From Escherichia coli (lineage in GTDB: Bacteria > Pseudomonadota > Gammaproteobacteria > Enterobacterales > Enterobacteriaceae), in assembly GCF_048403405.1 (NCBI RefSeq), contig NZ_CP183129.1: a stretch of 64,000 bases of DNA. One strand, 5' to 3'. The notes beneath the pieces were generated by a model. The model was not told the DNA's origin. It saw nothing but the letters and a program-made list of their open reading frames with translations, and made no database searches. Shown piece by piece: positions 27,926 through 29,376 of the stretch (positions within the stretch are counted from its first letter, which is position 1; each line of letters opens with the position of its first letter). The translations under genes and the position numbers were made by a program.

Positions 27926-29376
27926 CGTTTTCCCTTATAATTACAGACGCGCACTAGCTGTGCTGGGTTAGCAATAATCCAACATTTTAATCCTGATTAT
28001 GTTTATAAAAGCGAACGTTTGCTTAATAACTAACGTAAGTGGACCAGTTCTTCTGAGCGAATTTAAATGGAGTAGCGATAGTTACTTATAATAACTTTGC
28101 CATACAAACGCCATGCTCTTGCATGCTATGTACCTTTATATATTTATCAATCTGATACGAATCTAATAATAACCCTCATCATTAATGCAACTAATCTTAT
28201 CTATATATCATGTGATATGTTCTGTAACAAGTAAAATCAACATAAAAAATTCAGCAAAATTTAATATTCGTTCAACTAGCCGTCTCACATATGACATTAT
28301 TAGTCAACTCCACTTGCCACAAAATGGCTATTTCATGGAACGCAGTAATTTCTTAGTGGCTATTATCAAGCTAATTCTTAGGTCCCTAGCGATTATTCCT
28401 GGCTGGTTCGTCAGTTTAGGTCATGAGATTGTTACATTCCTTTTTATCCTGGAGATATGGGGGAACGCAGGCGACGCTTTTTCATCTACATCCGTTGGTA
28501 AATATGGCTTTGGTCACTACGACTTAAACCCTCCTCAATCACAGCTACTCGCCGGGCGATACGGCAAACAAACTAATTGAAACATCATCCTGAAAACACC
28601 AGCATCAACAAGCCTCTCCAGATCGACATCAGGAGTGACCAGTTACAAGCCACAAACCAAGAAACATATTTCATGATGAGAATTATGCTCAGCCTGATGG
28701 CGGGTAAACACTTATTTTCACCAAGCTCACTGAGTTAGCTTGCAAAGCTTTCTTTGTTTAGATTCTAAATAAATTATTTATAAAACATATAGTTAAAAGA
28801 AAATCTTTAGTTTTTGAAGACCACCGCAAGTGTTCGTCTGGCTTCACATGGCATCTGCCTCTTAGAAAAAGATCGACATATTTTGTGACACGAATTGCAA
28901 ATCTGGTTTTGTTGTATAGATTGCGTGATTTTTGATCTGGTATAACAGGTATAAAGGTGCGCCACGATAGTCAATGAAACTGGGCATCTCGCAATCTATG
29001 GCAAACATCACTTCAGTTCTTTCTCATCGGGTGATGAAAACGCACTTCAGTCTGAAAGGAATATGAAAATGAGATCAACAGACACTCTATTTTATGACTC
29101 TGGGTAAAATGGATTGAGTAAGTGATATAGCTTACGAACATTCAAATCAATTAAACATCAGAAGAGATTTTATACTCAGGTATTTAATCTGGTTCTCTGT
29201 TTATTTAAATAATGTGGAAAGAGAATTTTCACAGGAGACCTTATACAAAAAATATAAAATAAGCTACCCGTTGCCAAAGACACTATAAGCCTGGCAAAAA
29301 ATATTACACAACATAAATGCTAATTGTTTATGCGGGCTTTGTATTGCTTTCTGTATCCTACAAATGAGTGAAATTT

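Follow-up and report, generated by a model that had tools for sequence, protein, structure and literature searches.

The 1451-bp interval between fimB and nanC of an Escherichia coli genome most probably represents the nanC-fimB regulatory spacer known from K-12, and its internal reading frame shows no sign of coding

The closest described counterpart of the locus analyzed here is the nanC(yjhA)-fimB region of E. coli K-12, known from the work of the Blomfield and Plumbridge laboratories, whose characterised parts comprise O_NR, O_NC1, O_NC2, IHF, O_SA1/2 and H-NS sites as well as a 271-nt leader. In K-12, fimB has a sigma-70 promoter and a 271-bp 5' UTR with the Shine-Dalgarno (SD) sequence AAGGGA and the OLE TGGCGTTTGTAT (PMC3911127), and SlyA operator sequences lie at positions -167 to -194 from the fimB start (PMC3173223). 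Two NagC operator 23-mers, 'fimB1' and 'fimB2', are available from Table 1 of PMC3098098, and the class of NanR operators has been described (PMC8012715, PMC3658417). An RpoD-SELEX study assigned two holoenzyme peaks, together with H-NS, to the 1456-bp nanC-fimB spacer (PMC3946193).

We compared these parts with a window of 64,000 nucleotides from E. coli (NZ_CP183129.1), the whole stretch of DNA that was analyzed. Based on the listing of open reading frames (ORFs) in the window, the gap between fimB and nanC extends from 27926 to 29376, i.e., 1451 bp versus 1455 bp in K-12, with the same flanking genes in the same orientation, and has a G+C content of 36.3% (47.0% across the window, 43% in fimB and in nanC). 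An earlier note on this DNA, made from the sequence alone, had described a ~1.45-kb AT-rich gap between divergent fimB and nanC, and its coordinates proved exact. The left-flank gene is annotated as fimB in several genomes, among them K-12 and GN02461, a strain that matches the whole window at 99.99% identity. In both of these genomes, as here, fimB (minus strand) and nanC (plus strand) point away from each other, and the GN02461 annotation has no inter-gene gap longer than this spacer (the runner-up measures ~820 bp). The nanC start codon is the ATG at 29377; the ORF listing stretches this frame to a GTG at 29368. The spacer aligns end to end with that of MG1655 (K-12) at ~96% identity, which bears out the kinship with the K-12 fimB upstream region drawn in the earlier note. 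Among 5426 complete E. coli genomes, 5109 contain it, 5020 of them with a coverage of at least 80%, and some strains carry insertion sequences and deletions within it. The flanking genes and the elements placed between them are:

27323-27925, minus strand: fimB coding sequence, type 1 fimbrial switch recombinase (200-aa ORF), the left boundary of the spacer
27926-28195, minus strand: fimB 5' leader of ~270 nt, located by K-12 alignment
27931-27936, minus strand: fimB SD sequence AAGGGA, within the leader
27945-27953, minus strand: 9-nt stretch complementary to MicA (complementarity computed)
28102-28113, minus strand: ops-like element, located by K-12 alignment
28185-28580, plus strand: 131-aa ORF with an ATG start, judged a chance frame antisense to the fimB promoter region
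28195-28230, minus strand: putative fimB core promoter, predicted start at 28195/28196
28202-28207, minus strand: putative fimB -10 hexamer TATATA, read from the sequence
28225-28230, minus strand: putative fimB -35 hexamer TTGTTA, read from the sequence, with a 17-bp spacer to the -10
28363-28374 and 28378-28389, minus strand: SlyA operators O_SA1 and O_SA2, overlapping H-NS sites
28390-28664, no strand: variable spacer 1, from the SlyA sites to O_NC2, length not conserved
28665-28687, minus strand: NagC operator O_NC2, the exact 'fimB2' 23-mer
28688-28876, no strand: variable spacer 2, from O_NC2 to O_NC1, sequence free and length fixed
28877-28899, minus strand: NagC operator O_NC1, the exact 'fimB1' 23-mer
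28934-28961, plus strand: Dam site GATC (28934-28937) and NanR operator GGTATAacaGGTATAaaGGTGCG (28939-28961) with GGTATA repeats
28941-28946, plus strand: -10 hexamer TATAAC of the putative nanC promoter, overlapped by the NanR operator
28953-29376, plus strand: predicted nanC leader of ~420 nt
29377-30093, plus strand: nanC coding sequence, sialic-acid outer-membrane channel (238-aa product annotated NanC), the right boundary

We therefore read this interval, with a probability of roughly 0.93, as the E. coli nanC-fimB regulatory spacer, an AT-rich and gene-free region that would be bound by H-NS according to the K-12 literature and whose function is carried over from K-12. As a gap, it holds nothing new, the system being already known from K-12 work published between 2003 and 2014.

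The fimB start was placed from the length of the 271-nt K-12 leader together with the distance to the SlyA sites (-167 to -194), and the leader is here one T shorter than in K-12. The predicted promoter is well preserved across the 73 distinct alleles that we compared: positions 28196-28208, covering the start site and the -10 hexamer, are identical in 71 of 73, and the -35 stretch (examined as 28226-28231) in all 73. The MicA site is unaltered in 71 of 73 alleles, and the leader as a whole displays a low nucleotide diversity. A simple promoter scan left the fimB promoter hexamers unflagged. The same scan returned fewer promoter-like sites than shuffles did, and its sole 'terminator' is an SphI-site hairpin adjoining the ops-like element.

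Further upstream, the SlyA double-operator pattern occurs once in the window, its one mismatch falling in O_SA1, and is absent from shuffled sequence. O_SA1 reads TTAGCTTGATAA here versus TTAGCATGATAA in K-12, with a T for an A, which places this strain's operator one base farther from the SlyA consensus than that of K-12; the variant base is polymorphic across alleles (56/10/5).

Both published NagC 23-mers are present letter for letter, as the earlier note had expected of the NagC operators, and shuffled sequence held no copies of them. When scored with a NagC matrix from which the fimB sites were left out, O_NC2 ranks first in the 64-kb window (16.9 bits), and O_NC1 is weak (8.4 bits). O_NC1 is identical in 66 of 73 alleles; for O_NC2, conservation among the metagenome alleles is partly by construction, these having been retrieved with the O_NC2 sequence. 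The centre-to-centre distance between the two operators is 212 bp here and in 69 of 73 alleles, a fixed spacing for which looping by NagC may be the reason. A CRP-like half-palindrome (TGTGAcacgaaTTGCA, 28884-28899) overlaps O_NC1 with two mismatches and is not significant alone. IHF reportedly acts at fimB through a site between O_NC1 and O_NC2; the action of NanR, NagC and IHF at fimB is the subject of papers in PNAS (2004) and Mol Microbiol (2007). The matches to the IHF consensus at 28768-28782 are weak, with one mismatch each, are common in the window and do not rise above chance.

The third distant operator, predicted in the earlier note from its GGTATA repeats, occupies 28939-28961, just downstream of a GATC. 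It is the same as in K-12 save for the last base (third repeat GGTGCG versus GGTGCA), and its distance to O_NC1 is 51 bp in all 73 alleles, none of which departs from the GATC. A nanC transcript probably starting at ~28953 would carry a leader of ~420 nt, a placement based solely on where the NanR operator sits with respect to the nanC ATG and on homology to the nanA promoter. OmpR, CpxR and CRP are said to act at nanC as well (J Bacteriol 2005). In all alleles inspected, the putative nanC leader contains an upstream ORF of 14 codons with an SD-like GAAAGGA (29063-29107). Together, the fimB and nanC leaders probably make up a transcribed half, or about that, of the spacer. The term 'non-coding' used in the earlier note does not equal untranscribed: some 270 nt belong to the fimB leader and a predicted 420 nt or so to that of nanC.

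Across the 73 alleles, these elements appear as islands of conservation, while the sequence between them varies freely. Divergence within the operators amounts to 0.9-1.9%, versus 3-7% for the four-fold sites of the two flanking genes; compared with the divergent lineage E69, the operators differ by 4.7%, four-fold sites by 17% and the spacers by 36-38%. Nowhere in the fimB-nanC segment is variation lower than in the distant operator block (28877-28961), whose diversity is 4-7 times below that of synonymous sites, and the putative nanC leader (28990-29376) also stays below the diversity of the spacers. Spacer 1 shows 3-9% substitutions within E. coli, 36% versus lineage E69 and many indels, and O_NC2 lies 388 to 511 bp from the fimB start, depending on the allele. 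No other DNA of the locus is as polymorphic as spacer 2 (189 bp), whose diversity of up to 0.20 stands against 0.03-0.05 at third codon positions and exceeds the synonymous level 3- to 5-fold; compared with lineage E69, 38% of its positions differ, versus 17% of four-fold sites. Outside of Escherichia, the fimB orthologues of Raoultella, Citrobacter, Klebsiella, Enterobacter and Shimwellia (80-88% protein identity) have no nanC neighbour, and the DNA upstream of them has neither detectable similarity to the spacer nor GGTATA repeats. The coupling of fimB to sialic acid therefore looks specific to Escherichia.

These observations fit the following scheme, in which binding, the direction of regulation and the antagonism of H-NS and SlyA are taken from K-12 experiments in the literature, and to which our own data add which sites are present and where, how far they are conserved, the constant distances between operators and an ORF free of coding constraint. 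Transcription of fimB would proceed leftward from the sigma-70 promoter at ~28195 through the 270-nt leader, which would be under post-transcriptional control by MicA. H-NS would silence the promoter region, and SlyA, at -167 to -194, would counteract it. Three operators far upstream, at distances of 470 to 765 bp from the fimB start, would jointly raise fimB expression. NagC would bind two of them, O_NC2 and O_NC1, across whose 212 bp the DNA is most likely looped with IHF in between, and NanR would bind the GGTATA repeats 51 bp beyond O_NC1. Sialic acid would release NanR and GlcNAc-6-phosphate would release NagC, upon which fimB expression would drop and fewer cells would switch type 1 fimbriae on. 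Because the same NanR operator also sits on the putative rightward nanC promoter, sialic acid would simultaneously induce nanCMS.

The excess of change in the segments between the operators raises the question of whether these are neutral at all. Selection could hold the geometry of the loop constant while sequence changes that retune IHF or H-NS binding or the bendability of the DNA are tolerated or even favoured, an idea that we consider unlikely. If it were true, lineages would inherit different fimB set-points and a different responsiveness to sialic acid and GlcNAc, and the variable promoter-to-O_NC2 distance (388-511 bp) as well as the polymorphic SlyA operator would add to this tuning.

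All or part of the spacer might instead encode a regulatory RNA not described so far or a structured element of a leader, for instance in the long nanC leader or opposite the fimB leader, and this element, more than the protein operators alone, would explain the conservation. Such a reading could draw on the low variation of both leaders relative to the spacers, on the likely transcription of about half of the region and on the 14-codon upstream ORF with its SD-like motif. Yet a search of Rfam 15 over positions 25500-31000 on both strands gave zero matches at E <= 1, and the leaders are not predicted to fold more stably than shuffled sequences (z = +1.2 for fimB and -0.3 for nanC). Moreover, four of the five substitutions that lineage E69 carries in the upstream ORF change the amino acid, so that the peptide is not conserved there, and the conservation of the leaders is also to be expected from the binding sites of known regulators. 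We regard an RNA element as very unlikely.

Within the spacer lies the ORF of 131 codons at 28185-28580, which exists, and lacks an SD sequence, as the earlier note had stated: the 20 nt upstream pair with the anti-SD at +1.8 kcal/mol, versus -5 to -7 for fimB, fimE, fimA and nanM. The DNA that it occupies is not anonymous: in antisense orientation, the frame covers the start of fimB transcription together with the core promoter and the two SlyA operators. Were it a real, lineage-restricted gene, it would encode a small hydrophobic protein, lie opposite the fimB promoter and be expressed in those strains in which the frame is intact. Its length is mildly unusual, at least 131 aa being reached in only 0.8-1.8% of dinucleotide-preserving shuffles of the spacer. 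PGAP sometimes calls it a hypothetical protein, 33 of 73 alleles have it intact (at least 125 codons), and the allele of CFT073 carries a 12-nt insertion that is in frame. Its codon usage is mildly gene-like, with a z of 1.8 against a composition-matched null (2.5 for fimB, 5-8 for other genes). The AT-biased codon usage reported in the earlier note holds only weakly, with G+C contents of 0.42/0.36/0.36 at codon positions 1/2/3 and a score close to that of fimB. Codon usage alone leaves the question unsettled, and it is the comparative data that decide.

In the 40 other alleles, the frame stops after 1-114 codons; it is interrupted in K-12 (88 codons), where it is unannotated, and in O157:H7, and in lineage E69 it meets a stop at codon 2 and has eight indels, six of which are not multiples of three. 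Polymorphism is spread evenly over the codon positions (24/22/29, p = 0.6, 68 alleles), and pN/pS is 0.65, near the values of the other two frames (0.84-0.87) and of a non-coding control (0.8-1.3). As controls, fimB gave 12/9/39 and a pN/pS of 0.13 (68 alleles), and nanC 7/4/38 and 0.10. A weak third-position excess in the first 16 alleles (9/15/23, pN/pS 0.52) could be taken for a residual coding signal, but was gone with 68 alleles. No family in Pfam or NCBIfam matches the product, an exhaustive HMMER search of 1.84 billion representatives found copies at the same locus and no homologue elsewhere, and a word-based search likewise returned same-locus copies only. Two off-locus matches to far longer proteins (545 and 3801 aa, E ~1e-8) are weak and spread over multiple stretches. 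Database 'homologues' of 195-199 aa, considered as a longer version of the protein, were rejected as metagenome miscalls that read TGA as W. Targeted literature searches found no mention of this ORF. The conservation of its 5' part is due to the overlap with the fimB promoter. The comparative data largely refute a real gene, which we hold to be highly improbable, and uphold the view of the earlier note that this stretch is regulatory rather than coding. We judge the ORF, from its sequence and variation, to be a by-product of the fimB promoter region and of spacer 1, showing no sign of coding.

That the spacer could be decayed filler, for instance what is left of an old gene or mobile element, with function limited to the two gene-proximal promoters, is suggested by its AT-richness, its two fast-evolving, indel-rich segments, the insertion sequences and deletions in some strains and the unrelated DNA upstream of fimB in Klebsiella, Raoultella and Citrobacter, but is already refuted by the conservation pattern, with the least variable DNA in the distant block, the operator spacing fixed at 212 bp (69 of 73) and 51 bp (73 of 73), and published genetics showing that distant sites control fimB.

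The regulatory spacer would allow E. coli to reduce type 1 fimbriation when host inflammation frees sialic acid and GlcNAc, and represents a textbook case of far-upstream activation in bacteria. Our analysis adds a modest amount to it, namely a map of the elements in the coordinates of this strain and evidence from 73 alleles that the spacing is kept and the intervening sequence is not. As for the ORF, which some automatic annotations call a hypothetical protein, it should not be treated as a gene.

Every base of O_NC1, O_NC2, the GATC and the first two NanR repeats agrees with the K-12 region, and the distances between elements are equal (212 bp, 51 bp, and -167 to -194 for SlyA). Besides those in O_SA1, the third NanR repeat and the fimB leader, the differences consist in a few 1-bp indels in A-runs of the nanC-proximal part, and in the internal ORF, which is open for 131 codons here versus 88 in K-12. 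A second relative is the operator of nanA (nanATEK-yhcH) in K-12, part of the NanR sialoregulon, with which the NanR site shares 27 consecutive identical nucleotides, comprising TTGATC, two equally spaced GGTATA repeats and the first bases of the third, and whose promoter has an upstream CRP-like half-site in the same register as here. The third repeat is degenerate in our locus (GGTGCG), whereas nanA has GGTATA, and the start codon lies ~40 nt past the operator in nanA versus ~420 nt downstream for nanC. Unlike that of nanA, the operator between fimB and nanC would also serve as a distant activating site for the divergent gene. In overall architecture, the region resembles the 755-bp csgD-csgB spacer, which is also divergent, AT-rich and bound by H-NS, shows two RNA polymerase peaks and many far transcription-factor sites, and has been grouped with nanC-fimB (PMC3946193). 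The sequences of the two spacers are unrelated and their regulators different: unlike in csgD-csgB, the distant activators of fimB would be two sugar-responsive proteins of the repressor type, acting from more than 470 bp away.

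The interval between the divergent genes fimB and nanC spans 27926-29376 (1451 bp), in exact agreement with an earlier note made from the sequence alone, and it is AT-rich as described there (36.3% G+C versus 47.0% for the window and 43% in each flanking gene). According to the annotation of GN02461, an E. coli blood isolate that differs from the whole 64-kb window by six substitutions and one indel, it is the longest intergenic gap in the stretch. Megablast matched it in 5109 of 5426 complete E. coli genomes (5020 at a coverage of at least 80%), mostly with 95-99% identity. Aligned with the K-12 fimB upstream region, it is ∼96% identical from end to end to the nanC-fimB spacer of MG1655, where the annotation of that strain has no gene. 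This is the nanC-fimB control region already known from K-12, and the NanR and NagC operators that the earlier note had expected were found in it, the NagC 23-mers as exact matches.

Features of the fimB-nanC interval and its flanks (window coordinates)
27323-27925, minus strand: fimB, 200-aa ORF
27931-27936: fimB Shine-Dalgarno sequence AAGGGA (PMC3911127)
28102-28113: ops-like element TGGCGTTTGTAT (PMC3911127)
28195/28196: fimB start site, placed by the length of its leader (271 nt) and by the SlyA sites
28202-28207 and 28225-28230: fimB -10 TATATA and -35 TTGTTA, our reading of the sequence
28363-28389: SlyA operators O_SA1 and O_SA2, one mismatch (PMC3173223)
28665-28687: NagC operator O_NC2 ('fimB2'), exact match, none in shuffles (PMC3098098, Table 1)
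28877-28899: NagC operator O_NC1 ('fimB1'), exact match, none in shuffles (PMC3098098, Table 1)
28934-28937: GATC adjoining the NanR operator
28939-28961: NanR operator O_NR, GGTATAacaGGTATAaaGGTGCG
29377 (ATG) to 30093, plus strand: nanC, ORF

For this region the best-supported account is that worked out in K-12. H-NS would silence the AT-rich promoter region of fimB and SlyA would lift the silencing, and fimB would be activated from 470-765 bp upstream by NagC at O_NC1 and O_NC2 and by NanR at O_NR. Neu5Ac and GlcNAc-6-P would remove these activators, lowering fimB expression and thereby the off-to-on switching of type 1 fimbriae. For the nanC-fimB spacer, given there as 1456 bp, an independent RpoD genomic-SELEX study reported H-NS as well as two holoenzyme peaks. 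When scored with a weight matrix built from the eight non-fimB NagC sites of PMC3098098 Table 1, O_NC2 is the top-ranked site of the entire 64-kb window (16.9 bits) and O_NC1 a weak one (8.4 bits); consensus matches gave no convincing placement of an IHF site. MicA, a reported inhibitor of fimB, is by computation complementary to 27945-27953 in the fimB leader and to 27902-27911 in the early coding sequence.

We compared the locus across alleles, starting from 15 complete genomes of different lineages and one metagenome contig; this set includes E69, a divergent Escherichia lineage whose strain stands for a species cluster of its own in the genome collection. With a pattern scan of metagenome contigs, the number of distinct full-length alleles from fimB to nanC rose to 73. 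Because the O_NC2 sequence served to retrieve the metagenome alleles, its conservation in them is in part built in; no such selection applied to O_NC1, O_NR or the spacings. As the neutral yardstick we took the four-fold degenerate sites of fimB and nanC, where the differences are 3-7% within E. coli and 17% from E69.

Differences by segment (within E. coli; versus E69)
Operators: 0.9-1.9%; 4.7%
fimB core promoter: 0.6-2.5%; 12%
fimB leader: 1-4%; 7.5%
Spacer 28390-28664 (SlyA sites to O_NC2): 3-9%, with one near-identical allele at 0.4%; 36%, with many indels
Spacer 28688-28876 (O_NC2 to O_NC1): 2-12%; 38%

Over the 73 alleles, the diversity minima (the RBS/MicA region, the core promoter, O_NC2, the block from O_NC1 to the NanR operator, and most of the nanC-proximal part) coincide with known or expected elements. 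O_NC2 and O_NC1 lie 212 bp apart in 69 alleles and 211 or 213 bp apart in the other four, and O_NC1 and the NanR operator are 51 bp apart in all 73, whereas the fimB start and O_NC2 are separated by 388 to 511 bp. The segment between the NagC operators (28688-28876, peak at 28736-28825) is the most polymorphic DNA of the locus: it carries almost no indels, yet its diversity climbs to 0.20 (0.03-0.05 for third codon positions) and exceeds the synonymous rate. Such high diversity at a strictly conserved length is the only mildly unexpected point. The fixed 212-bp and 51-bp distances, alongside a free sequence and a promoter distance that varies, would fit a putative NagC loop that has a set geometry and acts from afar.

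Some sites vary among the alleles. O_SA1 (window 28369) reads TTAGCTTGATAA in this strain, a minority variant seen in 10/73 alleles, with the K-12 type in 56/73; the third NanR repeat (window 28961) is GGTGCG here, again a minority variant (3/73), and GGTGCA in 63/73. The GATC beside the NanR operator is invariant, and the one beside O_NC1 is present in 56/73. In one metagenome contig (ERZ24930546) a 70-bp deletion, corresponding to window 28358-28427, removes both SlyA operators, and in another allele the distance from start site to O_SA1 is shortened to 73 bp.

The 131-aa ORF noted earlier at 28185-28580 is present on the plus strand. Antisense to fimB, it begins 11 nt within the transcribed part of that gene and covers the start site and core promoter of fimB, both SlyA operators and the greater part of the spacer up to O_NC2. 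What speaks for a coding role is slight: its length is attained by only about 1-2% of shuffles, its codon-usage score is slightly gene-like (z = 1.8), and the first 16 alleles showed a weak periodicity, which was gone with more data. Yet the frame stays open for 131 or 135 codons in only 33/73 alleles, and in the other 40 it stops after 1, 28, 65, 73, 88, 104, 105 or 114 codons (88 in K-12, 73 in O157:H7) through 1-bp indels, nonsense changes and, in one allele, a 70-bp deletion. Polymorphic sites are spread over codon positions 1/2/3 as 24/22/29 (p = 0.6), versus 12/9/39 in fimB and 7/4/38 in nanC, and pN/pS is 0.65, similar to the two other frames and a non-coding control, versus 0.13 in fimB and 0.10 in nanC. 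As the earlier note had remarked, no Shine-Dalgarno pairing is found upstream. Pfam and NCBIfam gave no family, and HMMER, run exhaustively against 1.84 billion representative proteins, matched fragments of the same locus and, weakly and in multiple stretches, two much longer proteins (E about 1e-8). The 195-aa 'relatives' from a first protein search were rejected as gene calls reading TGA as tryptophan: the metagenome-derived entries P0001 (the largest such cluster, 1076 members), P0011 and P0054, of 194-199 aa, apply code 4 to E. coli DNA, which inflated the apparent family. The ORF thus shows no evidence of coding, and its occasional call as 'hypothetical protein' by PGAP is best regarded as over-prediction. 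With the published K-12 elements placed and the ORF free of coding constraint, the view that the region is regulatory rather than coding is supported.

Insertion sequences have rearranged the spacer in some strains. In strain EC11 (L042), a copy of IS1 lies directly against window ∼28188, and a deletion has removed fimB and most of the fim operon; in a contig of SRR18428543 (L005), an IS with a DDE_Tnp_1 transposase replaces the nanC side just past the ORF region. On the fim side, three of the six substitutions relative to GN02461 fall within 420 bp of fimA (25214-25768; at 25314, 25391 and 25733), and the fimS switch (25888-26201), bounded by 9-bp inverted repeats TTGGGGCCA and TGGCCCCAA at 25888 and 26193, has the orientation of the MG1655 reference sequence. 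On the nan side, nanS (31284-32264) is an intact 326-codon ORF, 96% identical to K-12 NanS and free of the seven differences from GN02461; the RefSeq annotation of that genome nonetheless lists it as an incomplete pseudogene (567 nt), probably an artefact of annotation. Downstream of nanS, ∼32270-64000 is an island that K-12 lacks at that position, encoding, by the GN02461 annotation, an HNH endonuclease, an AbiEii-type toxin pair, CbtA/YeeU, RadC, a complete BREX type 1 system (brxC, pglX, pglZ, brxL; roughly 48.1-63.0 kb) and, at the window end, a frameshifted integrase.

The NanR operator appears to lie on the nanC promoter, with a putative -10 TATAAC at 28941-28946, so that a single operator would act both ways, on fimB and on nanC. 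Since this promoter would be ∼420 nt upstream of the nanC ATG, a long leader is implied, starting near 28953; the predicted leader (28953-29376) is less variable than the spacers. Neither the fimB nor the nanC leader has unusual folding stability, and an Rfam search gave no family match. A 14-codon upstream ORF (29063-29107, MKMRSTDTLFYDSG), preceded by an SD-like GAAAGGA, occurs in every allele inspected; in E69, four of its five changes alter the peptide.

Raoultella, Citrobacter, Klebsiella, Enterobacter and Shimwellia carry fimB orthologues with 80-88% protein identity, which, judged crudely, are preceded by ORF-poor gaps of 0.5-1.7 kb. These orthologues lack a nanC neighbour and GGTATA repeats and show no detectable similarity to the spacer, so that the link from sialic acid to fimB by way of this spacer looks like a trait of Escherichia. 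The operator itself has a close counterpart in K-12, where the nanA operator contains a 27-nt stretch identical to one in the NanR operator region here (TTGATC, repeats 1 and 2, and the beginning of repeat 3). The likeness of the nanA promoter (nanR-nanA spacer, L044:60-215, minus strand) to window 28906-29003 extends beyond the operator proper: a CRP-like site, which here overlaps O_NC1, stands in the same register as at nanA, and the nanC-side ATCTATGGCAA can be aligned with ATTTATGGCAA at the start of nanA. These resemblances hint at an origin of the nanC-side module by duplication of the nanA promoter region.
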